The notes under the pieces were generated by a model. It was not told the DNA's origin, ran no database searches, and worked only from the letters and a program-made list of their open reading frames with translations. A DNA stretch of 64,000 bases from an uncultured archaeon (lineage in GTDB: Archaea; Iainarchaeota; Iainarchaeia; Iainarchaeales; 1-14-0-10-31-34): assembly GCA_964608675.1 (NCBI GenBank), contig CAZSOZ010000003.1:53041-117040 (forward strand). The letters run 5' to 3'. The translations under genes and the position numbers were made by a program. Shown one piece after another: positions 18,796 through 48,198 of this stretch; the first letter of the stretch is position 1, and each line of letters opens with the position of its first letter.

Positions 18796-18866
18796 TAAAC
18801 CACTAAAATCAATTTTATCATATTATTCTTGCAACAATTTAAATAAGTTAATTTTTTAATCCAGTT

Positions 18867-18875
18867 TTGTACCAA
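18867..18875 (+). promoter_or_regulatory. TTGTACCAA motif, copy 1 (upstream of flippase)
   Basis: TTTTGTACCAAAAACCGC followed by TTTAATAA; intergenic. Confidence 0.65.
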
Positions 18876-18967
18876 AAACCGCTTTAATAAAAGAACTTAA
18901 AATGAAAAAGTATTTAATTAAGTTCATTGGATTTTATTTAGTTAGTCACTTTTTTTTGGTTTATTTT

Positions 18968-20437
18968 ATGAGTACAATAAGGACAATAGGAAAAAACGTT
19001 TGTTTTTTAAGTGCAGGGAATTTAATTCAAAAACTGCTTTCTTTGGCAATGGTAATTTATTTAGCACAAAAGCTTGGAGTAGGGGATTTTGGCGTTTATT
19101 CTTTTGCTTTTTCTTTTGTTTTAATGTTTACTGTTTTTGGCGATTTAGGGGTTGGAACATATATTTTGAGGGAAATAGCTAAAGACAAAATTAGGGCTTC
19201 AAGGCTTCTTGGAGATGCATTTATAGTTAAACTCGGCTTGTTTTTATTTGTTCTTTTAGCAATTTTTCTTTCAATACTTGCTTTTCATTTTTTTTCTCCA
19301 AATGAATACCCTTTTGTAGTGGTGTTTTTTGTTTTGCTTGCAGGCATTTCTTTATTGTTAGATTCAATGGCCGGATTGTTTAGAATGATTTTTTTTGCTT
19401 TCCAGGAAATGCAGTATGAATTTTTTGCCAACACCTTCTATAAACTTCTTTTAGTGATTTTGACTGCCGGAGTATTGTTTTTGGGTTTTGGATTAAAGGA
19501 AGTCTTTTTTGTTGCATTGTTTTCTAGTTTGGTTAATTTTGTTTTAAGTTTTGTTTTAGTACTAAAAAAATTTACTGTTCCAAAAATCCAAATAAATTTT
19601 TCTAGATACAAGAAATTAATTATTGCCGGCCTGCCTTTTTGTTTTTTGGCTGTTTTCATGTCTTTTTATGCTAATATGGATTCTATTATGCTTTCTTTTT
19701 TTAAGGGAAATATTAGTGTTGGTTATTATTCTGCTGCAATGCGTTTAATTAATACGTTGTCTTTTATTCCTGCTGCTTTTATGTCAGCTATTTTTCCTAT
19801 TATGGCTTCTTTTTTTGCTGGATCAAATAAATCCCTTAATTTGGTTATTTCAAAGTCATTCAAGTATTTATTGATTGTTGTTTTGCCTGTTGCTTTTGCT
19901 ACTACTCTTCTCTCTGGAAGAATAATTGAATTAATTTATCCTACAATTCAAGGAAACGATTTTTCGCCTGCTGCTTCTGCTTTAACTATTTTAATTTGGT
20001 TTTCTGTTTTGAATTTCTTGAATTTGATTTTTTTAAATTCTTTGGCTTCAACTGCATTTGAAAAAAAAGCTTTAATTATTGTTGGTGTTTCTTTGTTTTT
20101 TAATTTTTTTCTTAATCTTTTTTTGATTCCTTTATTTGATTTTCAAGGAGCTGCTTTTGCCAGTGTTTTGTCTCAAATTGTTTTCTTTTTGCTTGGAGCA
20201 TATTTTGTTTCAAAGTATTTCTTTGGTTTTCTTTCTTTTTTTAAACTAATTTTTAAAACAGCAGTTAAGCCTTTGATTTCAAGTTTAATTGTTTTTGGTT
20301 TTATTTACTTTTTTTTTTATTTGAATTTTTTCATTTTGATTGTGATTTCTTTAGTTCTTTATTTGATTGCATTGTATTTAATTAAAGGTTTTGATGAAAA
20401 AGATATTTCTTTTTTCAGAAAACTGATTAACAAATAG
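18968..20437 (+). CDS. Wzx/MOP-family oligosaccharide flippase
   Basis: IGKN...YLAQKLGVGDFGVYSFA, DLGV...REIA, DSIMLS...VGYYSAA, IPLFDFQGAAFA; many TM helices. Start moved to ATG 18968. Confidence 0.9.
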   Translation: MSTIRTIGKNVCFLSAGNLIQKLLSLAMVIYLAQKLGVGDFGVYSFAFSFVLMFTVFGDLGVGTYILREIAKDKIRASRLLGDAFIVKLGLFLFVLLAIFLSILAFHFFSPNEYPFVVVFFVLLAGISLLLDSMAGLFRMIFFAFQEMQYEFFANTFYKLLLVILTAGVLFLGFGLKEVFFVALFSSLVNFVLSFVLVLKKFTVPKIQINFSRYKKLIIAGLPFCFLAVFMSFYANMDSIMLSFFKGNISVGYYSAAMRLINTLSFIPAAFMSAIFPIMASFFAGSNKSLNLVISKSFKYLLIVVLPVAFATTLLSGRIIELIYPTIQGNDFSPAASALTILIWFSVLNFLNLIFLNSLASTAFEKKALIIVGVSLFFNFFLNLFLIPLFDFQGAAFASVLSQIVFFLLGAYFVSKYFFGFLSFFKLIFKTAVKPLISSLIVFGFIYFFFYLNFFILIVISLVLYLIALYLIKGFDEKDISFFRKLINK

Positions 20438-20438
20438 T

Positions 20439-21146: not shown

Positions 21147-21155
21147 TTGTACCAA
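21147..21155 (+). promoter_or_regulatory. TTGTACCAA motif, copy 2 (upstream of formyltransferase operon)
   Basis: CTTGTACCAAAATAG followed by TTTATTAA; intergenic. Confidence 0.65.
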
Positions 21156-21253: not shown

Positions 21254-22000
21254 ATGAATAATCCGAAAATTGTTGTAATGGGAAAAAATAAGATTGCCTG
21301 GGAATGCAGCAAGTTTTTACTAGAGCAAAAAGAAAATATTGTGGGGGTTGTTGTTGGCGGAAAAGCGTGGCAGGAAAGCCTTGAAACTTTTGCGAAAGAA
21401 AATAATCTTCCTTATTGGAATTTTGAAAAAATTAATTCCCCTGAGGCTGTTCAGAAGTTAAAGGAATTAGAGCCTGACTTCATTTTTTCTTTTCAGTTTG
21501 ACCAGATTCTTAAAAAACAGGTAATTGAAATCCCAAACAAAGGCTGTATTAACCTTCATTTTGCTTTTCTTCCTAATTACAGGGGCTGTCATACTATAGC
21601 AAAGGCAATGCTGAACAAAGAACAATTTCATGGAGTTACTTTGCATTATATGGTTGAAGGCATTGATTCAGGGAATATTATTTCACAAAAAAAAGTTAAG
21701 ATTGAAAAACAATGGACTGCAAGGAACTTATACGATAAACTAACAGAAGAAGGAGTTAACTTGTTTAAGGAAACATGGCCTTTGCTTAAAGAAGAAAAAA
21801 TTGAACCAAAAACTCAAGGAAAAAATTTTTCTTATTATGACCAAAATTCAGTCAACTACAAAGAGTTAGCTAAACTTGACCTAAACAAATTTGATTCATG
21901 GCAGATTAAGGCAATGATTTTTCCGCCTTTTCAGTATCCTTACTTTGAATTAGATGGACTGAAGTTTTTTATTACTAAAGTGGAAAAGAAAAAGGAGTGA
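21254..22000 (+). CDS. Sugar N-formyltransferase (Fmt/GART family)
   Basis: INLHFAFLPNYRG (catalytic N-x-H), GVTLHYM, IDSGNII (catalytic D); short form; first gene before the aminotransferase. Confidence 0.85.
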   Translation: MNNPKIVVMGKNKIAWECSKFLLEQKENIVGVVVGGKAWQESLETFAKENNLPYWNFEKINSPEAVQKLKELEPDFIFSFQFDQILKKQVIEIPNKGCINLHFAFLPNYRGCHTIAKAMLNKEQFHGVTLHYMVEGIDSGNIISQKKVKIEKQWTARNLYDKLTEEGVNLFKETWPLLKEEKIEPKTQGKNFSYYDQNSVNYKELAKLDLNKFDSWQIKAMIFPPFQYPYFELDGLKFFITKVEKKKE

Positions 22001-22004
22001 AAAA

Positions 22005-23108
22005 ATGAAAGTAAATTTTGTTGATTTAAAAAAAATGCATGAACCCATAAGAAATGAAATTGATTTTGCAATAAAAGAAATAGTAGACAATACTGCGTTT
22101 GTTTTAGGCAAGCCGGTTGAATTATTTGAAGAAAATTTTGCTTCTTATTGTCAGGCAAAGTTTGGTGTAGGAGTCAGTTCAGGAACTGCTGCATTGCATT
22201 TGTCTTTTCTTTCTTTGGGAATAGGAAAAGGAGATGAAGTGATTACTGTTCCAAACACTTTTTTTGCTACAGTAGAAGCAATTTTGTACACTGGAGCTAA
22301 ACCTGTTTTTGTTGATGTACAGGAAGATTCATTTAATTTGGATGCAGAAAAACTTGAAGAAAAAATTTCAGATAAAACTAAAGCAATAATTCCAGTGCAT
22401 TTATATGGTCAGCCTGCAGACATGAAGCCAATTCAAGAAATTGCAGAAAAACACGATTTAAAGATTGTTGAAGATGCCTGTCAGGCTCATGGGGCAGAAT
22501 ACAACGGAAAAAAAGCAGGTTCTTTAGCGGACCTTTCTTGTTTTAGTTTTTATCCTGCAAAAAATTTAGGTGCTTTTGGCGAAGGCGGAATGATTACAGG
22601 AAACAATGAAGAATTAATTGAAAAAGCCCGAACTTTAAGAGCCCATGGAGAAAAACCAAAAAACACTCACAACATTGTAGGATTTAATTATCGTTTAGAG
22701 GCATTGCAGGCTTCAGTTTTGAATGTTAAATTAAAGAAATTAGATGAATGGAATTCAATGAGAAGGAATGCTGCAAAAAATTACAATGAAGCCTTGAATG
22801 GATTTGAAGGAGTAATTCTTCCAAAACAAATGCCTTATGCAAAGCATGTTTATCATTTGTTTGTTGCAAGAGTAAAAGAAAGAGAGAAAATACAGAATTT
22901 ATTGAAACAAAATGAAATTTTTACTGGCATCCATTATCCTATTCCTGTTCATTTACAGCCGGCTCTTTCTGATTTCTCTTATAATAAAGGAGATTTCCCT
23001 GTTGCAGAAAAATTAATGAGTGAAATAATTTCTTTGCCAATGCATCCTTTTTTAACTGAAGAAGAAATTGGTTTTGTAGGAGAAAAATTGAAAGAGGTAA
23101 TAAAATGA
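22005..23108 (+). CDS. DegT/DnrJ/EryC1/StrS sugar aminotransferase
   Basis: SSGTAAL, PVHLYGQPAD, EDACQAHG, FSFYPAKNLG (PLP Lys), HYPIP. Confidence 0.93.
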   Translation: MKVNFVDLKKMHEPIRNEIDFAIKEIVDNTAFVLGKPVELFEENFASYCQAKFGVGVSSGTAALHLSFLSLGIGKGDEVITVPNTFFATVEAILYTGAKPVFVDVQEDSFNLDAEKLEEKISDKTKAIIPVHLYGQPADMKPIQEIAEKHDLKIVEDACQAHGAEYNGKKAGSLADLSCFSFYPAKNLGAFGEGGMITGNNEELIEKARTLRAHGEKPKNTHNIVGFNYRLEALQASVLNVKLKKLDEWNSMRRNAAKNYNEALNGFEGVILPKQMPYAKHVYHLFVARVKEREKIQNLLKQNEIFTGIHYPIPVHLQPALSDFSYNKGDFPVAEKLMSEIISLPMHPFLTEEEIGFVGEKLKEVIK

Positions 23109-24040
23109 AAGTTGGGGTTATTGGAGCAGGCTATTTTGGAAAAAACCATGTAAGAGAATATGTTAATTCAGGGTGTGATGTTACAGTATGCGATTTAAAA
23201 GAAGAAAACCTTAATGCAGTGAAAGAAAAACATAAAGTGAACACAACAAAAGACTTGAATGAGTTATTGAATGATTCTGAATTAAAGGCTGTAAGCGTTT
23301 GTACTCAGAATTCAACTCATTTTGATATAGCAAAAAAGTTTTTGGAAAAAGGAAAGCATGTTTTATTGGAAAAACCAATGACTTTGGATTCAAAACAGGC
23401 TTTTGAGTTGGTTGAATTAGCAGAAAAAAGCAGGGTAATTTTAAGTATTGGTCATATTTTTCGTTATAATAATGGTTTAAGAAAATTAAAGGAAATGATT
23501 TCTGAAGGAGAATTAGGCGAAATTTTTTTGGCAAGATTGGTTTGGACTAATTTGAATCCTCCTTTTGAAGACAACAGGGACATTTATTTTGATTTAGGGC
23601 CTCATGCTTTGGATATAATTTATTTTATTTTAGGAAAGCTTCCAAATAAAGTTTCGTGCAGGGGAATTCCTTCAAGGGAAAACGCTTCACAGGATGAAAC
23701 TGCTTTCATTAATTGTGTTGCAGGAAACACTTTGATTAACATTGATGTAAGCTGGGTTACTCCAGAAAAAAAGAGAACTGTTTTTGTAGTTGGTTCAAAA
23801 AAGTCTGCTTTAATTGACTGTATGACACAGCAAATCACTTTAATTAATAATTCTGATATGAGCGAAAAAGAAATTTTTGTTCAGGCAAGCAATCCTTTAG
23901 TTGAAGAAATATTTGACTTCCTTAACGCAGTAAAACAGAATAGCAAAACTGTTTCAGAAGGAAAAGTTGGGGCAGAAATAGTGAAATTAATTGAATTATG
24001 CCATAAATCAATTAAAGAACAAAAAACAGTTTCTTTTTAG
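23105..24040 (+). CDS. Gfo/Idh/MocA oxidoreductase (WbpB/WlbA-like sugar 3-dehydrogenase candidate)
   Basis: VIGAGYFG, HVLLEKPM, DLGPHALD. Confidence 0.85.
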   Translation: MKVGVIGAGYFGKNHVREYVNSGCDVTVCDLKEENLNAVKEKHKVNTTKDLNELLNDSELKAVSVCTQNSTHFDIAKKFLEKGKHVLLEKPMTLDSKQAFELVELAEKSRVILSIGHIFRYNNGLRKLKEMISEGELGEIFLARLVWTNLNPPFEDNRDIYFDLGPHALDIIYFILGKLPNKVSCRGIPSRENASQDETAFINCVAGNTLINIDVSWVTPEKKRTVFVVGSKKSALIDCMTQQITLINNSDMSEKEIFVQASNPLVEEIFDFLNAVKQNSKTVSEGKVGAEIVKLIELCHKSIKEQKTVSF

Positions 24041-24048
24041 GTTAAAAA

Positions 24049-24963
24049 ATGAAAGTCTGTGTTATAATCCCAACTTTAAACGAAGAAGAGTTTATTGGAA
24101 AACTAATTGATTCAATTAATTCAAATTCTTATAAAAAAATAGAAGTAATTGTAGTTGATGACGGTTCAACAGACAAAACAGTTGAAATAGCCAAAAGCAA
24201 AGGAGCAAAAGTTTTTGTTAATTCTCCTGGAAGAAGGGGTCCTTCCTTTGGATGGAATTTTGCTGCAAAAAATACTACTGCAGAGATTTTATGCATTCTA
24301 GGAGCGGATTTCTTTATTTCAGATAAAGATTTCATCAAAAAAGCAGTTCAGGCATTTGATGAAAACACTGTTGCAGTTTACACTTCTTACACTACAATTC
24401 AGGATACTTTTATTGAAAGAATTGCTACAAAAAAAATAGGAGTTTCATTTGAGCCAAGGTTTATCAGAAAAGATGTTTTTCTTAAATTAGGGGGTTTTCC
24501 TTTGATTGGTTTTGGCGAAGACCAAATTTTTTCTTATAAACTCAAAAAGTTTATTAAAGAAAACAATTTAAAAGAAAAAATAGTTAAAGACGCATTTTTT
24601 TCAGGTCACGGAGTGCATTCTTTAAGTGAAATGTACAAGCAGGCTGAATGGTATGGAAAAACTTCAATTCCTTTCATTAAATTGGTTCCAAATGAATTCA
24701 AATTAAAGCAATTCACTTCAGTTTTTTTGCGCCCATTTTATTTCCTTTCTTTTATTTTTTCACTTCTTTCAGTTTACTTTTTTCCTTTAATTGTTTTTTC
24801 AATTCCATTTTTTTTGATTTACTTTAAAATAATTTTTGAGTCAATTAAAGCAAAAAACTTTTTTGTTTTAGGAAAAACTTTTACTTTCCTGTTTTTTGGG
24901 ATGGGAATGTTACATGGATTGTTTCTTTATTTAAGTGGAATAAACAGAAAAACAGGCCATTAA
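24049..24963 (+). CDS. Glycosyltransferase family 2 with C-terminal TM helices
   Basis: VIIPTLNEE, VVDDGSTD, GGFP...GED. Confidence 0.85.
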   Translation: MKVCVIIPTLNEEEFIGKLIDSINSNSYKKIEVIVVDDGSTDKTVEIAKSKGAKVFVNSPGRRGPSFGWNFAAKNTTAEILCILGADFFISDKDFIKKAVQAFDENTVAVYTSYTTIQDTFIERIATKKIGVSFEPRFIRKDVFLKLGGFPLIGFGEDQIFSYKLKKFIKENNLKEKIVKDAFFSGHGVHSLSEMYKQAEWYGKTSIPFIKLVPNEFKLKQFTSVFLRPFYFLSFIFSLLSVYFFPLIVFSIPFFLIYFKIIFESIKAKNFFVLGKTFTFLFFGMGMLHGLFLYLSGINRKTGH

Positions 24964-25589
24964 TTTTTTTTGCAGAATAAAATGCAGTTATGTAGAGAGC
25001 AAAATCCAAAGAAAAAATTTGCAATAATCCTGAAAAAGTATTTTGGCGGAAAAAAGCTTAATCCAACCCAGTACAATTCTGTTTTAAATCCAAATAATTC
25101 ACTGAAACTTGCTTCATCTAAAGGAGAAGGAGGAAGCTTGTGTGTTCTGTCTTTCCAGTACTCTATTCCAGATAAATTCATTACATTAGGAAAAGCAATT
25201 ATTAATGTTCCATTTTTGTTTAATATTTCACTGCATCTTTTAATGAATTTTTCTCTTTCCTGTATTTCTATATGTTCATACACATGGTTTGCTATTATTA
25301 CATCAAATTTTTCTTTTGTATTCCAGAAATCCATATAAAAATTATTTGTTTTCAGCCATTCAACGCTTTTAGAATCAATGTCGTATCCAAAATATTTTCC
25401 TTTGTCTTTCAAAGTTTTTTTGTAAAAAAAGCTTTCTTTTAAGCATCCAAAATCAAGTATTTTTCCTTTGAATTTAATTTTTTTGTCAATAAATTTTAAT
25501 GGTTCAAAAGGAAAAAAAATTTTTTTCGGATTAATTTTTCCTTTTTTTCTTCTTTCAAAAATTTTAGAATAATCGTTTCTTTCTTTCAT
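24960..25589 (-). CDS. Class I SAM-dependent methyltransferase
   Basis: ILDFGC, GYDID, FDVIIANHVYEH, YWKDRTH; resembles 20439-21083. Confidence 0.78.
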   Translation of the reverse strand: MKERNDYSKIFERRKKGKINPKKIFFPFEPLKFIDKKIKFKGKILDFGCLKESFFYKKTLKDKGKYFGYDIDSKSVEWLKTNNFYMDFWNTKEKFDVIIANHVYEHIEIQEREKFIKRCSEILNKNGTLIIAFPNVMNLSGIEYWKDRTHKLPPSPLDEASFSELFGFKTELYWVGLSFFPPKYFFRIIANFFFGFCSLHNCILFCKKN

Positions 25590-25593
25590 TGAA

Positions 25594-26670
25594 TCACTTT
25601 CTTAAAACATTTTCATACACTTCAAGAGTTTCTTTTGCGGTTTTTTTCCAGGAAAATTTGTTTGCCTGCTTTAATCCTTTTTTTTTCAGTGAATTTTGTA
25701 AGGATTTGTTCTCTAAAACTGTTTTTATTTTTTCTCTTATTGTATTTTCATTAATTTTTTCAATTATTGCAGGCATTTTTCCTGTTATTTCAGGAATGCT
25801 TGCATGGTTTGTTGTTAATACAGGGCATCCGCACGCCATTGCTTCAAGTATTGGTAAACCAAATCCTTCATAGCTTGACGGAAAAACACTTAAGTTAACT
25901 GCATTGTAATAATCTGCCAGCTTTTCTTCTGAAACATTTTTTTCATAAAAAACATTTTCAATGTTTTCTTTTTCAATAACTTTTCTTGTTTTTTTCCTTT
26001 GTTCTCCGATTCTGATTAATTCTGCATTCATGTCTTTAACTGCTTTAATTAATTCTGTTGTGTTTTTTCTTTTTTCTTCGGATCCTACATTAAGCAGATA
26101 AATTTTGTTTTCATTTAATCCAAGTTTTTGTCTGGCTTTTTTTTTGTTTGTTTCTCTGAAAATTTTTTTATCATAACCTAAATAAATTGTTTTTATTTTT
26201 TCTTTTTTTATTCCAAATTTTTTGATTAATTCTTGTTTAGTGAAATCTGAAATAGAAATTATTTGGTTTGCTTTTTTCATGGATTTCATTGATTTTTCAA
26301 GGAAAACTCTCATTGCAAAAGGATAATCTTTTTTTAATGCTGAAGGAATTATGTCCATACAGCTTACAATTGAAGGAGAATTGTATTCTGTTATTCCTGC
26401 AATAAACTGATTGCTTGCATGAAATAAATTGTATTCTTTTGGAATTTTTTTTGGATAAAAGTAATGCGAATTAAGGGTTTTTTTGAGTACCGGAAAATTT
26501 ATTCCTGTTCCCAAACTTTTTATTTTGTTTTTTTCTTCGGTGTTTCCCAAAAAAATCATTTCAATGTCAATTTTGTTTTTTAATTCTTGAAATAAACTGA
26601 AAGCATATTTTCCTATTCCTGTTTCTTTTGGGTAATCATTTATTAATGCAGTTTTTGTAGATTTTTTCAA
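25594..26670 (-). CDS. Glycosyltransferase family 4
   Basis: TGIGKY, VGSEEKRKN, FPSSYEGFGLPILEAMACGCPV, FSWKKTA. Confidence 0.9.
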   Translation of the reverse strand: MKKSTKTALINDYPKETGIGKYAFSLFQELKNKIDIEMIFLGNTEEKNKIKSLGTGINFPVLKKTLNSHYFYPKKIPKEYNLFHASNQFIAGITEYNSPSIVSCMDIIPSALKKDYPFAMRVFLEKSMKSMKKANQIISISDFTKQELIKKFGIKKEKIKTIYLGYDKKIFRETNKKKARQKLGLNENKIYLLNVGSEEKRKNTTELIKAVKDMNAELIRIGEQRKKTRKVIEKENIENVFYEKNVSEEKLADYYNAVNLSVFPSSYEGFGLPILEAMACGCPVLTTNHASIPEITGKMPAIIEKINENTIREKIKTVLENKSLQNSLKKKGLKQANKFSWKKTAKETLEVYENVLRK

Positions 26671-27727
26671 TTTCTTTCACCTTTTTTTTCCATCCAAATT
26701 TTTTTGCTTCTTGCAGGCAATTTTTTGAAACCTTGTTTAATTCTGTTTCTTTTTTTTCAAAGATTTTTGTTAAAGAATTTTTTTCTTTAAAGTCAATCAA
26801 ATAGCCGGTTTTATTGTTTTTAATGAGTTCTCTGAATGCCTGAATGTTGTTCACTACGGGAATTGTTCCTGAGGCCATTCCTTCTATTACTGCAATTCCA
26901 AATCCTTCGTATTCTGAAGCAGAAAGATTAAATCCTGCCTGCTTTACTTTTTTTATTAATTTTTTTTCATTTATTTTTCCAGTAAAAAAAATTTTTTTTT
27001 CCAGTTTTTTTTCTTTTATTTTTTCTTTTAATTCTTTTGTTATTCTATGAAAATCTTCTCCTATTATTTCAAGGCTTTTTTTTGGAAACTGTTTGTTTGC
27101 TTCTGCAAATCTTTTAATCAGTAAATCTATTCTTTTGTTTTTTGAAATTCTTCCGACAAAAACGGTTTTGTTGAAATCTTTTTTTCCTTTGAATTCAAAT
27201 TTTTTTGTGTTAACTGCATTCTGGACAAAAACAACTTTATCTGAAACTTTTTTAAATTGTTCAAAATCGTTTCTGCTGTCTGCAATAATTTTGTCTGCTT
27301 TTTTTAAATGATGTTTAAGCCAGTAATCATTATATAATTTTTTCAGCAGACTTTTTTTGTTTGTATGAAAGATTCCTCCGTGAGTGGAAATTAAAACTGG
27401 TTTTTTGTGTTCATTTTTTTTTGCTAAAATGAAATCAGAGAAAAACCCTATTCCATGGACATGTACTAAATCAAAGTTTTTTATGAATTCAATTACTTTT
27501 GGCGCAATTTTGTATATCCTTAAATCCCAGAATGGAATCCTGTTCACTTTGATTCCTTTGATTGTTTCTTTTTCTTTTAATTTTTTTTTTCCTTTACTGC
27601 ATTTATTTAAGCAAACTAATTCTGTTTGAATTCCTGTTTTTTTTAATTCAAGGCATAAATCCAGTGTATATTTTTCTGTTCCTCCTGTGCACGGCCAAAA
27701 ATGGTGCGAAACATGCAGTACTTTCAT
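26636..27727 (-). CDS. Glycosyltransferase family 4
   Basis: WPCTGGTE, STHGGIFHT, VGRISKNKR, SEYEGFGIAVIEGMASG. Confidence 0.9.
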   Translation of the reverse strand: MKVLHVSHHFWPCTGGTEKYTLDLCLELKKTGIQTELVCLNKCSKGKKKLKEKETIKGIKVNRIPFWDLRIYKIAPKVIEFIKNFDLVHVHGIGFFSDFILAKKNEHKKPVLISTHGGIFHTNKKSLLKKLYNDYWLKHHLKKADKIIADSRNDFEQFKKVSDKVVFVQNAVNTKKFEFKGKKDFNKTVFVGRISKNKRIDLLIKRFAEANKQFPKKSLEIIGEDFHRITKELKEKIKEKKLEKKIFFTGKINEKKLIKKVKQAGFNLSASEYEGFGIAVIEGMASGTIPVVNNIQAFRELIKNNKTGYLIDFKEKNSLTKIFEKKETELNKVSKNCLQEAKKFGWKKKVKEIEKIYKNCINK

Positions 27728-28752
27728 TTTTTCACCTTAATGCTTGTTCCGATTATTCCTGAAATCAATCCTGTACAGAAAGCAAGAGTTCTGAAGAAAA
27801 TGAAAGCAGGAGAAATAATTCCGTGAATTAAATTTTTTTTAGCTGACTTTATTGCAAAAGGAGTCATTGAAACTAAAAACATTAGAACACTTATCAAAAT
27901 CATTAAAGTTAATGCAGAATTAATTGAATTGCTGATTATTTGATTGAATTGAAGAATTGAATTAAAAGCCAGTAAACTTATTTCTGTTATTAATGCATAT
28001 ATTAAAAGTATCTGGAATTTAATTGTTTGTGGGGTATAAGAATCTTTTATTATTTTATCTTTGTGTTCTTTGTACATTAAAATTCTCCAATAACCTCTCC
28101 AAAATTTTATTTTCAGGTAATTTAAAAAATTTTCAGGATGTAAATGATAAACTACTGCTTTTGGATTAAAAACCAGTTTTAATCCTTTTTTTTCCATTCT
28201 GTAGCTTAGTTCAGGGTCTTCTCCTGAAGCACTCGGAAAATTTTCGTTGAATCCATTAAAATCAAGAAAAACTTTTTTTTTGTATCCTGCAGAATAGCTT
28301 CCAATAAAATCAATTGAATTTTTTTTTTGCATTGATTTTTTCATTAAATCATATCTATCTTCTATTTCTGTCTGCACGAATTTTGCTGTAAGCGCTTTTT
28401 GTTTTGTTTTGTAGGCTCCCTGCACTCCTGCAATTTCAGGTTCTTCAAACGGGTTAAGCATTTCTTCAATCCAGTTTTTTTTTGCAATACAATCAGAGTC
28501 AGTAAATAAAATTATTTCTCCTTCAGCATTTTTTGCCCCCAAATTTCTTGCTTTCGCAGGACCTGAATTTTTTTTTTGTTGAATTAATTTTATTTTATTG
28601 AATTTTTTTATTTTTTTGATTGTGTTGTCTGTTGAACAGTCGTCAACTATAATTAATTCAAATTTTTTTTTAGTTTTTTGAGTTAAAATTGATTGAATTG
28701 TTTGTTGAATTGTTTTTTCGCAGTTGAATGCAGGGATAATTACTGAAATCAT
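27724..28752 (-). CDS. Glycosyltransferase family 2
   Basis: SVIIPAFN, VDDCSTD, GPAKARN, FTDSDC, GEDPELSYR; C-terminal TMs. Confidence 0.9.
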   Translation of the reverse strand: MISVIIPAFNCEKTIQQTIQSILTQKTKKKFELIIVDDCSTDNTIKKIKKFNKIKLIQQKKNSGPAKARNLGAKNAEGEIILFTDSDCIAKKNWIEEMLNPFEEPEIAGVQGAYKTKQKALTAKFVQTEIEDRYDLMKKSMQKKNSIDFIGSYSAGYKKKVFLDFNGFNENFPSASGEDPELSYRMEKKGLKLVFNPKAVVYHLHPENFLNYLKIKFWRGYWRILMYKEHKDKIIKDSYTPQTIKFQILLIYALITEISLLAFNSILQFNQIISNSINSALTLMILISVLMFLVSMTPFAIKSAKKNLIHGIISPAFIFFRTLAFCTGLISGIIGTSIKVKK

Positions 28753-30242
28753 TTTTTCACTTTTGTGTTTCCTGAAAAAACAGATTTTCCAAGGTGTTTA
28801 ATTAATTCTTTTCCGCCTTTAAAAATTCGTATTCCTTCTTTTGGATTTTTTGCAATTTGTTTCAGCATTTTCAGCCAGTATTTTGGGTTTTTCGCATAAA
28901 ATTCTATTCTTGCTTTATTGCACCATTTAACTAGTTCTTCTGCGCTTAATTCAGGCCTTGAAACAACAGTATTATGCAGTCCTTCTTCTGTAATCCATTT
29001 AGAAAAATCTTCTGTTGAAATAAAACCTTGTTTTTTTGCCCATGAATATGCATGTGTTCCTGGATAAACCATTAAAGGATAAAATTGAGCAGTGTTTGGA
29101 TTAAGGTATTTTGCAAATTCAATTGTTGCTTTCATGGTTTCAGGAGTATCATGAGGCAAACCTAAAATAAAGCATCCGTTTACAAGAATTCCTGCTTTGT
29201 CTGCTCTGTCTTTGAATTCAACCTGCATGCTTTTTGTTTGGCCTTTCAGAATGCTGTTTAAGACTTTTTGGTTTGGGGTTTCAAATCCCACGCACACTAA
29301 TCTGCAACCTGCTTCCTTCATTTTTTTGAGAGTTTCAAAATCAGTGTTAACTCTTGCATTAGTGCTCCAAACTAAATTTATTTTGTTTTTAATTATTGCG
29401 TTGCATAACTGAATTGTTCTTTGCTTGTCTGCTGCAAAAGTGTCGTCTTCAAACATTAATTCATTCAAAAAAGGCATGTTTTTCTGGATAAACTTCAGTT
29501 CTTCAATTACATTTTCAATACTTCTTGCCCTGTAAGATTTTTTCATTGGAATATTGCAGAAACTGCATGAATTAGGGCATCCTCTTGCTGTAAGAATTTG
29601 AATTTCAGGCCAGTTAATTGAAGCATAAAAGTATTCTTTAATCAGTTTTTCTCCGAAATGCCTTAAATAAATTTCAGAAACAAAAGGAAGATCATCTAAA
29701 TTTTCAACAAGCTTCCCTTGTCCATTATGTATAAATTTTCCTTTTTTTTTGAATGCAATTCCTTGAATTCTTTCAATGCTTTTTTTTTCATTTAATGCTT
29801 CTGCAAGAAAAACAACTGTATTATCAAATTCTCCAATACAGATTGAATCAATTGCGTTGCTTTGATTTAATGTCCATTCAGGAAGATTGCTTACATGTGT
29901 GTTTACCATTGTTATATGGCTGTCCGGAAGCACTTCTTTTATTTTTTCTGCAATTTTTATGTCATTAAAAATGCTTGGAGTGCTTGTATCAATTACAATT
30001 AAATCAAATTTTTCTTTTTTTGCGTAATCAACTGTTTCTTTTTTAGTCCATTTTCTTGCAACTGCGTCAATTAATTTTGGGGCAAACCCTTTTTTTTCAA
30101 GTGCTCCTGTTGCGTAAGCCAGATAATATGGATAATATAGTGTTCTGCTTTTTGTTACACACGGCGACCTGCTTTGCCTTGAATAATATTTTTTGAACGG
30201 CGGATTCAACATTAAAATTTTAAATTCAGATTTTTTTTTCAT
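28749..30242 (-). CDS. Radical SAM protein with B12-binding-like N-terminal domain (HpnJ-like)
   Basis: TARGCPNSCSFC, FEDDTF, CVGFE, GCFILGLP, YPGT; N-terminal LNPP...SRSP...YYPYYLAY, DTSTPS. Confidence 0.85.
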   Translation of the reverse strand: MKKKSEFKILMLNPPFKKYYSRQSRSPCVTKSRTLYYPYYLAYATGALEKKGFAPKLIDAVARKWTKKETVDYAKKEKFDLIVIDTSTPSIFNDIKIAEKIKEVLPDSHITMVNTHVSNLPEWTLNQSNAIDSICIGEFDNTVVFLAEALNEKKSIERIQGIAFKKKGKFIHNGQGKLVENLDDLPFVSEIYLRHFGEKLIKEYFYASINWPEIQILTARGCPNSCSFCNIPMKKSYRARSIENVIEELKFIQKNMPFLNELMFEDDTFAADKQRTIQLCNAIIKNKINLVWSTNARVNTDFETLKKMKEAGCRLVCVGFETPNQKVLNSILKGQTKSMQVEFKDRADKAGILVNGCFILGLPHDTPETMKATIEFAKYLNPNTAQFYPLMVYPGTHAYSWAKKQGFISTEDFSKWITEEGLHNTVVSRPELSAEELVKWCNKARIEFYAKNPKYWLKMLKQIAKNPKEGIRIFKGGKELIKHLGKSVFSGNTKVKK

Positions 30243-30253
30243 TTTTTTTCACC

Positions 30254-31132
30254 TTAAATTAATAGCCTGCCAAATTTAATGCTTGCATATAATCTCATTA
30301 ATTTAACTGCAAGCACATAACTTATTCCTCCTAAAAAAATAATTATTGAATGAATTAAACTTTTGTTTTCCATAAAAATAATTCCTCTTGGAGAACTTAA
30401 ATTCATTTTTCCTTTTTTATGCCATAAGCCTGTCGCTGCCTTAAAATCATTTAATGGGTTGACAATAAAACCGAATTTGATGTCTAAAAACTTTTTTGTT
30501 CTTTCAGGATTCTTTTTATACAATAAAACATCATTTTTGTGGTTTTTAATTCTCTTCCATGAATGCCTTAAAAATTCAATGAAATTTTTTGGTTTTTCCA
30601 TTTTGTGGTCATGAAAATATTTTGCGTTAACCTGCTTTACTTCAAATCCTTCATCTAAAATTCTGAAAACTAAATCAGTGTCTTCTCTGTAATAAAAGTA
30701 GTCTTCGTCATATAATCCTGTTTTTTTTAATGCTTTTTTACTGAAGCCAGTGGATGTGCCTCCATGCAAGGAATACCCTGAAACCATTCCAGTTTTCTCT
30801 GAATTAAATCCTTGCATCATGTCTTTCAGCCAGTTTTTTTCCGGAATGCAGTCGTCATCCATTATTATAATGTAATCGTTTTTTGCTTTTTTTATTCCCT
30901 GATTTCTTGCTTTGCATGGTCCTTTTTCTTTTTCATTGTTAATTATTATTACTTTTTTTTGATTTTCAAATTTTTCGAGAACTTTTTTTGTTTTGTCTCT
31001 GCTTCCATCATTTACTACAATTATTTCGTATGCGTTTTCAGGATAATTTAATTCAAGCATTCCTTGAATTGTTTTTCCAATTACTTCCTGCCTGTTAAAA
31101 GTCAGAATCACTATGCTGGCTTTTTTTACCAT
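30254..31132 (-). CDS. Glycosyltransferase family 2
   Basis: SIVILTFNR, VVNDGSRD, ARNQG, MDDDC, YREDTDL. Confidence 0.88.
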   Translation of the reverse strand: MVKKASIVILTFNRQEVIGKTIQGMLELNYPENAYEIIVVNDGSRDKTKKVLEKFENQKKVIIINNEKEKGPCKARNQGIKKAKNDYIIIMDDDCIPEKNWLKDMMQGFNSEKTGMVSGYSLHGGTSTGFSKKALKKTGLYDEDYFYYREDTDLVFRILDEGFEVKQVNAKYFHDHKMEKPKNFIEFLRHSWKRIKNHKNDVLLYKKNPERTKKFLDIKFGFIVNPLNDFKAATGLWHKKGKMNLSSPRGIIFMENKSLIHSIIIFLGGISYVLAVKLMRLYASIKFGRLLI

Positions 31133-32601: not shown

Positions 32602-32610
32602 TTGGTACAA
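32602..32610 (-). promoter_or_regulatory. TTGTACCAA motif, copy 3 (upstream of the wecB-like operon)
   Basis: Minus strand TTTTGTACCAAAAAACCC followed by TTTATTAA; intergenic. Confidence 0.68.
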
Positions 32611-37325: not shown

Positions 37326-37331
37326 TTTTTT

Positions 37332-39294: not shown

Positions 39295-39303
39295 TTGGTA
39301 CAA
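39295..39303 (-). promoter_or_regulatory. TTGTACCAA motif, copy 4 (upstream of the aglH-like operon)
   Basis: Minus strand TTTTGTACCAATTTTTTA followed by TTTAAAAA; intergenic. Confidence 0.65.
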
Positions 39304-39320
39304 AACTAGTTTTAAAGTCT

Positions 39321-43682: not shown

Positions 43683-44597
43683 ATGAAAAACCAAAAACTT
43701 GTTTCAATTATAATTACAACATGGAATTCATTTGATTTAACAAAACAATGCATTAATTCAGTTTTAAAAAACACTTTACAGCCCTTTGAAATAATTTTGG
43801 TTGACAACGGAAGCAAAGACAAAAGCATTCAAAAACTTGAAAAAGAATTTTTTGATTTAAAAAACCTTAAAATAATTAAAAACAAAATAAACAAAGGTTT
43901 TCCATATGCTTTAAATCAAGGCTACAGCACAGCAAAAGGCCATTATGTTGTGCATTTAAACAACGACGCATTTGTAACAGAAAACTGGCTGAAAGAATTA
44001 ATTAAAACAATTGATTCAAATGAAAAATTAGTGGTTGTCGGAGTAAAAGAAGTTTCTCCTGAACAATTCAAAAACAAAAAATTAATTCAAGAAATCAAAT
44101 CAAAGCCAAACAAAAAAAAATTAACTTGCCCTGTAGGATGGATAACAAAAAAAAAATTCATTAACGAAATAGGATACACTGATGCAGAACACTTTTCTCC
44201 TATTTATGGAGAAGAAGCAGACTGGAATTTTCGTGCAAGAAAAAAAGGATACCAAATAATTGAATGCAGTAAATGCATTGTAGTTCATTTTTCTTCTGTT
44301 GACTCAAAAAAAGGAATGAAAGCAAAAAATCATTACATTCTGCTTAACACGCACAGGCTCAGGTCATTCTTGTTTAATCTTGGATTAATTGACCTCCTGC
44401 GGTTTGTTCCAGGTATGGGATTAATTTTACTGCAAAGCATTCCAAACCAGTTTTTTTGGTTAATGACAGCTTACTGGAACAACTTAAAAGACATAAAAAT
44501 GATTTTAAAAGAAAGAAAAAAAAGAAACAAAAGCTCTTTTATTCCATTCAAAGAACCAAAATTTTCTCCGCCCTTCAAAATAGAAAAAGAAAATTAA
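43683..44597 (+). CDS. Glycosyltransferase family 2
   Basis: SIIITTWN, VDNGSKD, NQG, LNND, YGEEADW. Confidence 0.88.
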   Translation: MKNQKLVSIIITTWNSFDLTKQCINSVLKNTLQPFEIILVDNGSKDKSIQKLEKEFFDLKNLKIIKNKINKGFPYALNQGYSTAKGHYVVHLNNDAFVTENWLKELIKTIDSNEKLVVVGVKEVSPEQFKNKKLIQEIKSKPNKKKLTCPVGWITKKKFINEIGYTDAEHFSPIYGEEADWNFRARKKGYQIIECSKCIVVHFSSVDSKKGMKAKNHYILLNTHRLRSFLFNLGLIDLLRFVPGMGLILLQSIPNQFFWLMTAYWNNLKDIKMILKERKKRNKSSFIPFKEPKFSPPFKIEKEN

Positions 44598-45712
44598 TTT
44601 TTTAATTCAAAATAAAGTTTTTCCAGTTTTTGAACGCTTGCCCGAATTGAATATTCTTCTTCAAACAATTTTCTTGCTTTTCTTTCAAGTTCCTTTCGTA
44701 ATTCAGGGTTTTCAATTAATTTGTTGATTCCTTCCCCTAAATCTTTTGGGTTTTCTGGCTTAACAATTAAAGCAGAATCTTTCAAGTATTCTTTTACTGC
44801 CCCAACATCAGTTATAACACATGCTTTTCCCATTGCAAGAAATTCAAGCAAAGAAATTGAAGTAGAAAATTCATAAACATATGAATGAGGAGCAATTTCT
44901 GTTGCACCCCAATACTCAGTTTTTTCTTTATTTGAAATGCTTCCAGGAAAAAAAACCACATCATCAACTTTTTCTTTTACTGCAATTTTTTTTAATTCAC
45001 TTGAATTTCCCGGCCCAATGCACAAATACTTGTATTCTGGATGTTTTGCTTTAACGTATTTCATTGCTTTAACAATATACTTTAAACCCAAAACATTTGT
45101 TGTCCACAAACTTTTAATTGAAACAATCAAATGTTCCCCAAAATTTTCTTTTACTTTTTTTCCTTTTGCATTAACATCATAATTTTCTTTGTTTAATGCA
45201 GCAGGAATAACCTGAATTCTTTTTTCGGTTATTCCCCAGGGAAGCAAAAACTTTTTTTTCATGTTTTCAGTCCAGATAACAATTTTATCGTATTTTAATT
45301 TTGGAAGCAAAAATTTTTCTAAAGCAAAAATAGTTTTAGTATGCAGGTTGTTATTGTCTGAAGAAATCATTTCAATCAATAAAACATGAGGAACATTTAA
45401 TTTTTTTTTTACTTTGTCTCCAATCCATCCCATCAAACAATTGGAATGGCTTTGAATTACATCAGGCTGGAATTCTTTTGCTTTCTTTACAATTCTTTTA
45501 TAAAAAAAAGACATAGTGAATTTATGGAATGCATGATGGCCAAAAAAAGGAATCTGCAGGAATTCTGCATTCTTGTGTTTGAAGTCATACGGTTCAGTGC
45601 TGACCACTAAAATTTTATGACCTTTTCTGAGCATTTCTTTTATTATGTCTCTGCAGTATATTTCGCTTCCGCCAATGTCCCCCAAAACAGAAGTAATGTA
45701 AATTATTTTCAT
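44594..45712 (-). CDS. Glycosyltransferase family 4
   Basis: IGGSE, EFSTSISLLEFLAMGKACVITDVG. Confidence 0.85.
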   Translation of the reverse strand: MKIIYITSVLGDIGGSEIYCRDIIKEMLRKGHKILVVSTEPYDFKHKNAEFLQIPFFGHHAFHKFTMSFFYKRIVKKAKEFQPDVIQSHSNCLMGWIGDKVKKKLNVPHVLLIEMISSDNNNLHTKTIFALEKFLLPKLKYDKIVIWTENMKKKFLLPWGITEKRIQVIPAALNKENYDVNAKGKKVKENFGEHLIVSIKSLWTTNVLGLKYIVKAMKYVKAKHPEYKYLCIGPGNSSELKKIAVKEKVDDVVFFPGSISNKEKTEYWGATEIAPHSYVYEFSTSISLLEFLAMGKACVITDVGAVKEYLKDSALIVKPENPKDLGEGINKLIENPELRKELERKARKLFEEEYSIRASVQKLEKLYFELKN

Positions 45713-45784
45713 TTTCAGTTCACTTGAATTATTAATTCATTTCTTTTATTTTTTTAATTTAATATTTTTTGAGTTAATTTTTTT

Positions 45785-47014
45785 TTATTCATTTAAACTG
45801 TAAATAATTTTGTTTTTTCCAAAAACATTCCAGACATCACATATAATACAGTCTTTTTTTGCCAGTTTTTTTATTTTTTCAATTGAAAGAGTCTTGTATG
45901 CTGAATGATTTATTCCTACAATTATTACTTCTGCATCCCTTAACACTTCTTCTGCGCTTTTTTGATTGAATTCTTTGATTAAAGGGTCATGGCATTCAAC
46001 TTCTGCATTTTCTCTTTTTAGTGCTTTTTTTATTTTAAAACTCAAAGAATTTCTTGTGTCATCGTTGTCTGCCTTGAATGCCATTCCAAGCAATGCAATT
46101 TTTTTGTGTTTTAAATCTTTTTTTGCCTTAATTTTTTTCAATAAATACAAAGGAGTTGTTTCATTTATTTTCCAGCTTACTGAAATTAATTCATCAAAAG
46201 GCATTGTGTTAATTAAAAAAAATCCGTCTTTGTATAAACATGGTCCTGCGGCATAACCCGGCTGTTTTACTCCTCCTCTCTTATAATTATGGTTAATTAA
46301 ATGAATTATTTCATATACATTCCTGTCATGTTCTTCAGCTAAAATCATGAATTCATTTGCAATAGAAAAATTAATATAACGGTACATGTTAGTAAAAATT
46401 TTTGCCAGTTCAGCGCTTTTTGCATCTGTTTCCAGTTGTTCATCTGTAAACTCTTTAAAGAATTCAACTGCTTTTTTTGTGCTTTCTTTTTCTATGCCTC
46501 CAATTATTTGAGGAAGTATTTTTGTTTCTTCTATTGCTTTTCCTTGTGCAATTCTTTCAGGACAAAAAGCAAGAAACAAATTTTTTCCTATTTTCATTTT
46601 GCTTTCTTTTTCTATTTTATCTTTTAAGTATTCTGTTGTTCCGGGAGAAACCGTTGAACGCAGGATTATTGTTTGATTTTCTTGGAGGTTTTCAATTAAA
46701 TTTTCTATTACTCCGTCAATCTGCCTGTAATCAGGATTCAAATGTTCATCAACAGGAGTCCCAATAGTTAAAACCACATGCTCTGATTCTTTTACTTTGC
46801 TTAAATCAGTTGAAGGAATAAATTCTTTTCCAGTATATTTTTCCAGTAATTTTTGGGCGTTTTCTTCTTCGAAAGGCATTTCTTTTTTCTTTATTTTTTC
46901 AATGTAGTCTTCTCTTACATCTATTCCGTAAACTTTAAATCCTGCTTGAGCCAAAGTCAAGCATAAAGGCAGTCCAACTCTGCCGATTCCTATTACACTT
47001 ACCGTTTTTTTCAT
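45785..47014 (-). CDS. UDP-N-acetylhexosamine 6-dehydrogenase (WecC/WbpA-like)
   Basis: IGIGRVGLP, LRSTVSPGTT, CPERIAQG, AGPCLYKD, GMAFKADNDDTRNS. Confidence 0.88.
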   Translation of the reverse strand: MKKTVSVIGIGRVGLPLCLTLAQAGFKVYGIDVREDYIEKIKKKEMPFEEENAQKLLEKYTGKEFIPSTDLSKVKESEHVVLTIGTPVDEHLNPDYRQIDGVIENLIENLQENQTIILRSTVSPGTTEYLKDKIEKESKMKIGKNLFLAFCPERIAQGKAIEETKILPQIIGGIEKESTKKAVEFFKEFTDEQLETDAKSAELAKIFTNMYRYINFSIANEFMILAEEHDRNVYEIIHLINHNYKRGGVKQPGYAAGPCLYKDGFFLINTMPFDELISVSWKINETTPLYLLKKIKAKKDLKHKKIALLGMAFKADNDDTRNSLSFKIKKALKRENAEVECHDPLIKEFNQKSAEEVLRDAEVIIVGINHSAYKTLSIEKIKKLAKKDCIICDVWNVFGKNKIIYSLNE

Positions 47015-47049
47015 TTTTTTTTATCACTCTTTTTTTGATTTTTTTTAAT

Positions 47050-48108
47050 TCATTGTCCGTAAAATTTTGAGCAGGTACTGCATGCTTTTGGAGGACTTTT
47101 GGTTTTAATTTTTTTTCTGAATTCCCTGTATTTTTTTCCATTCCAGATTTCTTTTAATGATTCTTGTTTTATGTTTCCCATTACATTTTCTTCATTCATT
47201 CTTGCGTCTGCCATCTGAGGAATAAAACAGCAGGGAATAACGTCTCCGTTTGATGCAATATAAGGATTAACCCAAGGATAAGCGCATCCAGTATTACTGC
47301 TTTTTTTTAATTCAATTTCCGGCCAAGAAAAAACTTTTACCTGTAGCTCTTCTGCTGTTTTTTTTGCTTTTTCTAGTTCAGGTTTAACTTTTTCCGGTTC
47401 AAGGTTCCATAAAGAAAGTTTTCCTGTATTGCTTGACATAATTATTGCAGTAAACATTAAATTGTCTGCTTTTAATTCTTTTGCAAGTTTAACTAATTTT
47501 TCTATTTCATGATAGTTTTCTTTTATTACAACAGAATTAATTCCAAGTTTTGGTTTATTCATTTTTCTTTTATCCCTTAATTCTCTTAATTTTTTAAAGT
47601 TTGCAATAACTTTGTTGAAGTCTGCGCCGTTTCTTATTTTTTCGTAAGTTTCTTTTGTTGCTCCGTCCAAAGAAACAACAATAAAATCCACTTTCAAGTC
47701 GAGCATTTTTTCTGCTTTTTTTTCGTCCAGCAAAGTAAAATTATCATTAAACCAAACATACAAACCTTTCTTTTTTGTGTATTCAATCATTTTCATAAAT
47801 TCAGGGTTAAGCAGTGCTTCCCCAATACCTGTTAAATTTACTACCTGAATGTTTTTGTTTTTGTCAATTAATTTTTTGAATTCACTTAAATTCAAATGTT
47901 CTCCTTTTTCTTTCATAAAAGTGTGTTCGCACATTGCACAATTCAGGTTGCAGGCAGTAGTTACTTCCACCTGTAAGGCAGTAGGATTATATCCTGTTTT
48001 TTCTTTAAATTGGTTTTGTTCAAAAAACCTTTTTCCTGCATTAATTAATCCAAAGAAACCGTTTCTTTTGAATGCTTTTAAAATAAAATCTTTTTTTTTT
48101 TGAAGCAT
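47050..48108 (-). CDS. Radical SAM protein with SPASM/twitch domain
   Basis: CNLNCAMC, GIGEALL, SLDG, CAYPW...NGDVIPCC...GNI...CSTC. Start moved to ATG 48108 after an AGGAG RBS. Confidence 0.88.
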   Translation of the reverse strand: MLQKKKDFILKAFKRNGFFGLINAGKRFFEQNQFKEKTGYNPTALQVEVTTACNLNCAMCEHTFMKEKGEHLNLSEFKKLIDKNKNIQVVNLTGIGEALLNPEFMKMIEYTKKKGLYVWFNDNFTLLDEKKAEKMLDLKVDFIVVSLDGATKETYEKIRNGADFNKVIANFKKLRELRDKRKMNKPKLGINSVVIKENYHEIEKLVKLAKELKADNLMFTAIIMSSNTGKLSLWNLEPEKVKPELEKAKKTAEELQVKVFSWPEIELKKSSNTGCAYPWVNPYIASNGDVIPCCFIPQMADARMNEENVMGNIKQESLKEIWNGKKYREFRKKIKTKSPPKACSTCSKFYGQ

Positions 48109-48189
48109 AATTTTTCTCCTGAATAAAAAAAACAGTATTAAAATTAATATAAACAGGCATGATTTCATTTTTAACTTTATTTATTGTTT

Positions 48190-48198
48190 TTGGTACAA
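48190..48198 (-). promoter_or_regulatory. TTGTACCAA motif, copy 5 (upstream of radical SAM/SPASM gene)
   Basis: Minus strand TTGTACCAAAAACAATAAATAAA; intergenic divergent promoter. Confidence 0.62.

Follow-up and report, generated by a model that had tools for sequence, protein, structure and literature searches.

Which factor could co-ordinate the scattered operons of an archaeal surface-glycan cluster? The question is raised by a 64,000-nucleotide (nt) stretch of DNA from an uncultured archaeon of the Iainarchaeales (contig CAZSOZ010000003.1, positions 53,041 to 117,040; this whole stretch, with 30.5% G+C, is called the window here), which carries a large protein-glycosylation/surface-glycan cluster as judged by Pfam. 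Within it a short motif, the TGTACCA box TTGTACCAA, stands 5' of five glycan-type genes. By our comparisons the box is genuine and conserved: it is a regulator site close to the promoter, and both a strong candidate for its binder and a coherent set of glycan target operons can be named. As to how it works, we lean towards an autoregulated factor with tandem winged-helix-turn-helix (wHTH) domains, which would co-ordinate the surface-glycan operons, probably as an activator, from sites just 5' of the recognition element of transcription factor B (the BRE; TFB) and the TATA word. What is new is the candidate site and binder for glycan operons; that factors can have their sites just 5' of the BRE is already well known.

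The TGTACCA box in the glycan cluster

An exact search of the window found TTGTACCAA at 18867(+), 21147(+), 32602(-), 39295(-) and 48190(-) and nowhere else, the same five copies, on the same strands, that an earlier inspection of the DNA without database searches (the sequence-only reading) had listed. Dinucleotide-preserving shuffles of the window gave a mean of 0.77 copies, and none of the 100 shuffles contained five, while one-mismatch variants were at chance level (29 observed vs 24.96 in the shuffles). The claim that all five copies are intergenic and face particular genes also agrees with our open reading frame (ORF) map, which is crude and underlies all intergenic and coding calls given here, and with Pfam: each copy faces a glycan-type gene, namely a flippase, a formyltransferase, a UDP-GlcNAc 2-epimerase-like (wecB-like) gene, a GT4/AglH-like glycosyltransferase (GT) gene and a radical S-adenosylmethionine (SAM)/SPASM gene. 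The promoters and the genes next to them are listed below; the scores in bits come from a weight matrix trained on 39 sites, taken from relatives only.

18867..18875 (+): TGTACCA box TTGTACCAA, flippase promoter; TATA-like TTTAATAA at 18883-18890; top match of the weight matrix, 23.7 bits
18902..20437 (+): polysaccharide flippase gene (Pfam Polysacc_synt); likely start at the second ATG, 18968
21147..21155 (+): TGTACCA box, formyltransferase operon promoter; TATA-like TTTATTAA at 21161-21168; 17.6 bits
21254..24963 (+): four-gene run of formyltransferase, DegT-type aminotransferase, GFO/IDH/MocA oxidoreductase and GT2 (ORF map, Pfam)
24960..32514 (-): seven-gene run of UDP-GlcNAc 2-epimerase-like protein, GT2, B12-radical SAM, GT2, GT1, GT1 and methyltransferase (ORF map, Pfam); presumably a single operon
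32602..32610 (-): TGTACCA box, wecB-like operon promoter; TATA-like TTTATTAA at 32587-32594 (-); 19.4 bits
34603..39231 (-): five-gene run of GT4 (AglH-like), Alg14-like, Alg13-like (GT28 C), LPG_synthase_TM and EpsG-like membrane protein (ORF map, Pfam)
39295..39303 (-): TGTACCA box (TTGTACCAAT / TGTACCAAT form), aglH-like operon promoter, directly 3' of the AglB stop; TATA-like TTTAAAAA at 39280-39287 (-); 12.3 bits
39321..41285 (-): AglB/STT3 oligosaccharyltransferase (Pfam STT3, AglB_core-like)
44594..48168 (-): three-gene run of radical SAM/SPASM (likely start 48108), UDP-glucose dehydrogenase-like and GT1 (ORF map, Pfam)
48190..48198 (-): TGTACCA box, radical SAM/SPASM operon promoter; TATA-like TAAATAAA at 48176-48183 (-); 18.0 bits

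The run at 21254..24963 was read as one operon because its gaps are short and its genes overlap. Since AglB/STT3 is present, we take the cluster to serve protein N-glycosylation. Its other Pfam-assigned enzymes include many GT1/GT2 glycosyltransferases, sugar-nucleotide dehydratases, epimerases, dehydrogenases, C-methyltransferases and radical SAM enzymes of the B12 and SPASM types, next to the GT4 AglH-like protein, the Alg13/Alg14-like pieces and the flippase. Note that no TGTACCA was found in the gaps upstream of the AglB transcription unit (41285-42410) of this genome.

The distance from the start of the motif to the start of the TATA-like word is 16, 14, 16, 16 and 15 nt for the five copies, exactly as the sequence-only reading had given it, except that the fifth TATA word is TAAATAAA and does not begin with TTTA. 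The same reading had placed the gene starts 72-107 nt downstream. This is true only when the second ATG is used for two of the genes, as the first in-frame ATG lies 35 nt from the motif in the flippase gene (the second, 101 nt) and 30 nt from it in the radical SAM gene (the second, 90 nt). Because the first ATGs are too near the TATA word, the second ATG is the likely start of both genes. The extension of the motif to a palindrome, TTTTG-TAC-CAAAA, had to be given up: its outer T's are unconserved in relatives, which mostly have ATTGTACCAAAA, and we rejected it as the recognition unit.

A TTTAA-like word is found 5' of four of the window boxes. Upstream of the wecB-like box, at 32611-32660, the end of the preceding epimerase gene carries an inverted repeat, ATTAAAAC-N2-TTTTAAT, which is common to the genomes of the genus and is probably a terminator; this repeat explains the TTTAA that the sequence-only reading had seen in front of that copy.

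The box across the genome and in relatives

In the complete assembly (1.207 Mb in 53 contigs, 32% G+C, 94% complete) TTGTACCAA occurs nine times, with six intergenic copies (the five of the window plus one at C4:41910, on another contig) and three coding ones. An order-3 Markov model expects 0.62 intergenic and 4.5 coding copies. Five of the six intergenic copies fall within the 827 bp of intergenic DNA of one 29-kb span. These enrichment statistics are post hoc, and the intergenic-over-coding bias of TTGTACCAA ranks only 301st among the 9-mers with at least five intergenic copies. What makes the box convincing is its clustering, its fixed orientation, its fixed spacing to TATA and, above all, its conservation in relatives. 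The genome contains the shorter word TGTACCA 36 times, with 10 copies in intergenic DNA, and only six of these 10 precede a TATA word and a gene: the five window sites and C4:41910. Each of these six promoter-type boxes has one orientation and faces a gene, with the TATA word 14-16 nt after the motif start. When the weight matrix was run on this genome, five of the six were ranked at the top (17.6-23.7 bits), and the sixth, at 39295, scored 12.3 bits; the matches between them reached at most 16.4 bits and, with the exception of C2:61408, all overlap crude ORF calls.

The box does not behave as a general promoter feature. For this comparison TATA-anchored counts were used instead of an expectation-maximisation de novo model of general promoters, which was too blurred. 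In the 253 TATA-anchored promoter windows the composition at -16..-9 was that of the background, and a weak A-rich BRE, at -7..-5, was the only signal. With six promoter-type sites genome-wide and no signal at the position of the box in the 253 windows, we rejected the box as a general core-promoter element. The genome, at 94% completeness, has one TFB gene, and one full gene for the TATA-binding protein (TBP; 50665-51438) in addition to a weak 24-bit fragment, which leaves no second basal factor by which a special BRE could be read.

Three observations stand beside these. The match at C2:61408-61432, located ~130 nt 5' of the single TFB gene, differs from the box by one base and has a shorter spacer, TTGAACCAAAACC-TTTATATA. 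At C1:299611-299640, CTGTACCAAAAAC-TTTTTAAAAAA faces the gene of a 447-residue protein in which we read an N-terminal membrane anchor and many N-x-S/T sequons; it is a possible seventh site, and the protein, which matched no Pfam family, may be a surface glycoprotein. Finally, the single full-length TBP gene, 50665-51438(-), adjoins the glycan cluster and ends in a ~70-residue lysine-rich tail.

The box recurs at the orthologous promoters when the comparison takes in five congeneric genomes and three from the same family. At the wecB-like promoter, neither box nor TATA varies among the five genus genomes. At the aglH-like promoter they form the sole conserved island of a four-genome alignment with 67% mean identity, and at the radical SAM/SPASM promoter the box is kept in three genomes (G002, G004 and G005). 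The consensus among relatives is (A/T)TTGTACCAAAA, with the core TGTACCA(A/T). This core is also present in glycan-gene promoters of at least ten other families of the order. Box and TATA word precede aglH-like GT4 genes in five other families (G023, G016, G012, G060 and G017), a radical SAM gene in G027 (family f20) and a GT1 gene in G018. Thus, the motif is neither equally common in coding DNA, nor present at most promoters, nor peculiar to this genome, its core being kept in genus, family and order. These were the three findings that the sequence-only reading had named as fatal to its proposal, and its core, a shared regulator site just 5' of BRE/TATA across scattered glycan operons, is supported by the comparisons.

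To these loci we added a scan of 16 further ORFs downstream of boxes, from ten genomes. Nine of the 16 encode sugar-nucleotide, glycosyltransferase, B12-radical SAM or methyltransferase enzymes: NDP-sugar dehydratases/epimerases (5/16), UDP-glucose dehydrogenase (1/16), B12-radical SAM (1/16), methyltransferase (1/16) and GT1 (1/16). The others are SAM synthetases (MetK, 2/16), YdjM-like membrane proteins (2/16), a HisA/F-like protein (1/16) and two ORFs with no assigned function (2/16). One double-box promoter was also found 5' of a PolX gene. A scan upstream of aglH found the box in 7 of 30 loci, which speaks neither for nor against our explanation. At many of the aglH loci that have no box, aglH comes directly after aglB with little or no spacer, and may lack a separate promoter. 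Across 41 relatives, the count of the 11-mer TTGTACCAAAA was no higher than that of its reversed control, so whole-genome counts of this word are uninformative and only its context tells.

The operon of a tandem winged-helix protein

The sixth promoter-type site, C4:41910, lies outside the window and reads ATTGTATTA-N10-ATTGTACCAAAAAGCC-TTTATAAA. A leader of ~165 nt separates it from the first gene of its operon, which encodes a 124-residue membrane protein with a weak match to DUF7471 and three helices predicted from its sequence. Eleven bases after the stop of this gene starts a second one (C4:42477-42998), which encodes a 173-residue protein with two wHTH domains in tandem, our candidate regulator. 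It matches the Pfam families HTH_24 (3.2e-19), HTH_HVO_0163_N (1.5e-17) and HTH_5 (9.4e-14) in two stretches each, with scores above the curated cut-offs for PF24266 (63.9 bits; cut-off 31), PF13412 (68.7; 21.9) and PF01022 (51.5; 22). The score against Pfam EarA (PF07381), 14.0 bits (E = 0.044), is below the cut-off of 22. An AlphaFold model (pLDDT 84.8) predicts two wHTH domains, a flexible linker and C-terminal helices. Single domains of the model gave fold matches to CadC, SmtB, CzrA, NolR and AspA (TM-scores up to 0.79 on the target), and the whole chain matched generic tandem winged helices alone (ScpB, RPC62; TM-score about 0.3). The best solved sequence relative, PDB 5duk, is an uncharacterised 'putative DNA binding protein' that matches domain 1 at 7e-12. 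The Pfam family of this domain also has matches in the controls M. jannaschii, H. volcanii and M. acetivorans; in the accessible portion of the literature, HVO_0163 was named only in an acetylome study.

Of 81 genomes sampled from the order, 65 gave matches to the candidate regulator, 63 of them a single match each, and the putative recognition helices of the protein, GSLQYHLDYL and PSTTSWHL, are almost invariant across the order. Two samples of loci were examined. The first comprised 30 loci picked by homology to the regulator alone, and in 28 of them TGTACCA(A/T)AA-N4-TTTATAA was present 5' of the operon; the other two carry one-base variants. An exact second or third TGTACYA box was found 16-20 nt upstream in 13 of the 30. 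In the second sample, of 80 species-level loci, the membrane-protein gene adjoins the regulator gene in 77, and 74 loci had enough upstream DNA. Here 55 had the exact box and TATA and six matched a relaxed pattern; by inspection, eight more had the same layout with an altered proximal box (often only ACCAAAA) or TATA, and five had nothing. Nowhere is the site stronger or conserved more widely than at the promoter of the regulator operon, where the TATA is the consensus TTTATAAA. To find a site almost universally at the promoter of a regulator itself is a classic sign of autoregulation, which we infer here.

The pattern TGTACCA-N6-8-TTTAW was counted next in genomes with and without the regulator. 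In the 65 genomes that have the regulator it occurs 146 times (reversed control, 79), and in the 16 where no regulator was found, 29 times (reversed control, 25); two of these 16, both incomplete, carry an apparent operon promoter.

The same two-gene operon is present in Methanocaldococcus sp. 16A, with a regulator that is 52% identical. Its promoter contains TGAACCAAAAGATTTATTTAAA, in fuller form TGAACCAAAAGA-TTTATTTAAA, which is a TGAACCA variant of the box, and a neighbouring gene, PepSY-like as read from its sequence, has the promoter TTGTACTA-N12-TGAACCA-N7-TTTAT. The box variant 5' of the TFB gene at C2:61408 has the same TGAACCA form as these. Note that TTGWACCAW, with 93 matches vs 78 for the control in Methanocaldococcus, is too degenerate to define a regulon there.

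Several features of the regulator operon are recorded here in their own right. Its leader, ~100-350 nt long (C4:41935-42090, and at the same place in L052-L080), contains a hairpin followed by a long U-run. The stem sequence varies by lineage, and the apical loop is a conserved word, UUCACCUCA(CG), which is inside a hairpin in 19 of 20 sequences by single-sequence folding (mean z -3.9 vs mononucleotide shuffles). RNAalifold on a MAFFT alignment of the leaders gave no consensus structure, the stem lengths being different, and scans of 13 loci with Rfam and ARAGORN, from the box to the membrane-protein gene, detected no known RNA. The apical loop resembles what we take to be the 3' end of 16S rRNA (the anti-Shine-Dalgarno sequence). 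The hairpin could be an attenuator, a leader that sequesters the Shine-Dalgarno sequence or a small RNA. A second conserved word, ~CAGCWATNRGTATAG, follows the TATA around the expected transcript start (C4:41936-41965 and relatives L054-L078) and is seen across families; with TGTA inside it, this word might be a further site for the same factor, of low affinity. In family f4, L137 (G058:C35) and L138 (G042:C11) have a second double-box promoter, TTTGTACTA-N9-TGTACCAAAAT(T/C)CC-TTTATAAATCAAAG, beside that of the regulator operon. The first long ORF is 540-800 nt away from it and has no Pfam match, so the promoter may drive an RNA gene or that of a small protein.

Candidate binder and mode of action

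In the explanation that we favour, TGTACCA(A/T) would be the recognition box of a sequence-specific transcription factor, and the likeliest binder would be the 173-residue candidate regulator, whose two tandem winged-helix domains are ArsR-like and whose gene is on another contig. The factor would act on its own operon through one box at a fixed distance from TTTATAAA and usually one or two more boxes 16-20 nt upstream, and in the window it would bring five operons of the N-glycosylation/surface-glycan cluster, with about 20 genes, under common control through single boxes. Its targets in other families would be genes for sugar-nucleotide enzymes, glycosyltransferases and radical SAM enzymes. 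The co-encoded membrane protein is a possible link to the state of the envelope. TGTACCA ends 6-8 nt 5' of the TATA word in all six sites of this genome, and exactly 7 nt in 28 of the 30 regulator-operon promoters of the first sample. The box would thus abut the upstream edge of the A-rich BRE, at about -45 to -39 if TATA starts near -31. We read the factor as an activator because the position immediately 5' of the BRE is where archaeal activators that recruit TFB or TBP bind. In support of this, the part of PMC5512572 available to us describes archaeal activators as typically binding 5' of the BRE and recruiting TBP or TFB, with EarA, the ara-box factor and TFB-RF1 acting immediately 5' of BRE/TATA, and repressors as binding in or after the promoter, where they may hinder TFB or TBP.

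One of the closest parallels is the EarA system. At the fla promoter of Methanococcus maripaludis, EarA sites are also short boxes in several copies immediately 5' of BRE/TATA; there are four boxes of 6 bp, and EarA is a winged-helix activator of a cell-surface structure that is proposed to help TFB (PMC5512572, as far as that text was available). The putative system described here differs in its box sequence, its protein family, its two wHTH domains with a membrane-protein partner gene and its candidate targets, which are glycan rather than archaellum genes. The sites of TFB-RF1 (PF1088, Pyrococcus furiosus), of the Sulfolobus ara-box factor and of Ptr2 (M. jannaschii), which recruit TFB or TBP, lie directly 5' of the BRE as well (same portion of PMC5512572). 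Those sites are at promoters with a weak BRE or a weak TATA, whereas the TATA of the regulator operon matches the consensus. Among the glycan promoters the TATA word varies (TTTAATAA, TTTATTAA and TAAATAAA), and the BRE consensus of the genome is too weak for grading them. Note that Ptr2 is an Lrp-type protein. Each domain of our candidate matches ArsR-type wHTH domains in sequence and fold; unlike the ArsR/SmtB proteins, which are single-domain homodimers and mostly metal-sensing repressors, it has two such domains per chain and conserved C-terminal helices. A tie to the membrane is also known for archaeal surface-structure regulators, ArnR and ArnR1 of Sulfolobus acidocaldarius, according to the accessible part of PMC6396743. 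There the regulator itself is membrane-bound, whereas here a soluble regulator is co-encoded with a small membrane protein, its possible partner.

Several points weigh against this explanation. As regards the regulon, the box is at only five of about 12-14 transcription units of the cluster (a count derived from the ORF map), and the excess of the composite pattern is small, about one site per genome. Related genomes do not count as independent observations. Sites in other families also stand before genes with no obvious glycan role (two MetK, two YdjM-like, one PolX, one HisA/F-like and two without assigned function). As regards the binder, autoregulation is itself deduced, and another factor could control the regulator operon and the glycan genes alike. 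Moreover, in one subclade the proximal box is reduced to ACCAAAA, so that some of the conservation may reflect the BRE rather than the site of the factor. As regards the sign of the effect, activator-dependent promoters are usually weak, and that of the regulator operon has the consensus TATA (TTTATAAA) and an ordinary A-rich BRE; the TATA word and the location of the box at the BRE edge are assigned from the letters of the promoter, the sequencing runs listed for 32300-41300 being four DNA runs of one study and no RNA run. A box that abuts the BRE could equally block TFB.

This last point leads to the alternative that survives best, although we judge it unlikely: the same protein at the same site with the opposite sign, that is, a repressor or dual regulator that blocks TFB at the BRE, the upstream boxes serving co-operative negative autoregulation. 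The 3' A-run of a box that ends 6-8 nt from TATA overlaps the BRE position, the consensus TATA of the regulator operon needs no help, and the relatives of the ArsR/SmtB type, by fold and by sequence, are mostly repressors. Repressors bound in the promoter region can hinder TFB or TBP (PMC5512572, available part). However, the specific part, TGTACC, is 9-14 nt 5' of TATA, beyond the 6-7 nt that the same portion of PMC5512572 gives for the BRE. In addition, all the sites are 5' of TATA, with none over or after it in any lineage seen. Sites upstream of TATA go with activation in Tgr/TrmBL1 and SurR, which argues for the activator.

We consider it improbable that the box is read by another protein, the membrane-protein/wHTH operon being just one more member of the regulon. 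The obvious candidates, already proposed by the sequence-only reading, are the nucleotidyltransferases of the cluster that carry a ribbon-helix-helix (RHH) domain. Their two genes, 7692-8537(-) and 9422-10228(-), each encode a clear RHH domain of ~50 residues at the N-terminus, and RHH proteins commonly bind short tandem repeats. Matches that include the RHH domain are spread over many families of the order. The distribution of these proteins does not follow that of the boxes: RHH-containing matches (query from residue 10 or before) were obtained in two genomes in which no wHTH regulator was detected, G034 and G075, and none of the matches listed, all stronger than the remaining 79, comes from G023, which is 99% complete and has boxes at the regulator operon and at aglH. 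Against any other binder, the wHTH operon is itself the sole locus with a near-universal box, and its Methanocaldococcus copy has the box as well. Of the binders that the sequence-only reading had considered, an unlinked factor fits best, as the wHTH protein is encoded on another contig and has the box at its own promoter throughout the order, and the RHH proteins fit poorly.

Finally, it is scarcely credible that the box is an extended core-promoter element (a long BRE) for the basal machinery or, as the sequence-only reading had left open, a transcribed leader element of the ops/JUMPstart kind: the 3' half of the box does merge with the BRE position, a one-base variant (TTGAACCAAAACC-TTTATATA) does precede the TFB gene and TTTAA-like words do precede four window copies, but only six promoters have the box, generic promoters have no signal at -16..-9, there is a single TFB gene, the T-rich words at the wecB-like box belong to the inverted repeat at the end of the preceding gene and, in the regulator-operon promoters of many families, the box appears to lie 5' of the sole TATA, in DNA that is G+C-rich and has no TATA further 5', so that it cannot be transcribed from there.

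With the tandem-wHTH activator as the preferred explanation, a wider and more doubtful scheme can be drawn, in which one envelope-sensing circuit, common to Iainarchaeota and Methanocaldococcus, would be made up of the box, the regulator, the membrane protein of three helices encoded beside it and the leader, whose hairpin has a loop like the 3' end of 16S rRNA. The membrane protein would report the state of the surface or of the lipid carrier, the regulator would switch on the glycan operons and its own operon from just 5' of the BRE, and the leader would add control at the RNA level. The sources returned by our literature searches, in the portions accessible, contained nothing on the box motif, on the tandem-wHTH regulator or on a regulator of archaeal glycosylation. 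We know of no archaeal cluster for N-glycosylation or surface glycans to which a transcription factor has been assigned, nor of any DPANN archaeon in which a regulon has been worked out. What we offer is a concrete hypothesis: it has a box of 7-9 bp, a named candidate protein and a defined set of target operons, and a cultivable Methanocaldococcus possesses a close homologue behind a promoter of the same layout. If the envelope-sensing circuit were true, it would be the first case of a regulator dedicated to protein glycosylation in archaea and of a defined regulon in a DPANN archaeon. Since surface glycans are what a host-dependent or episymbiotic cell presents to its partner, such a switch in a DPANN archaeon would bear on how contact with that partner is managed.

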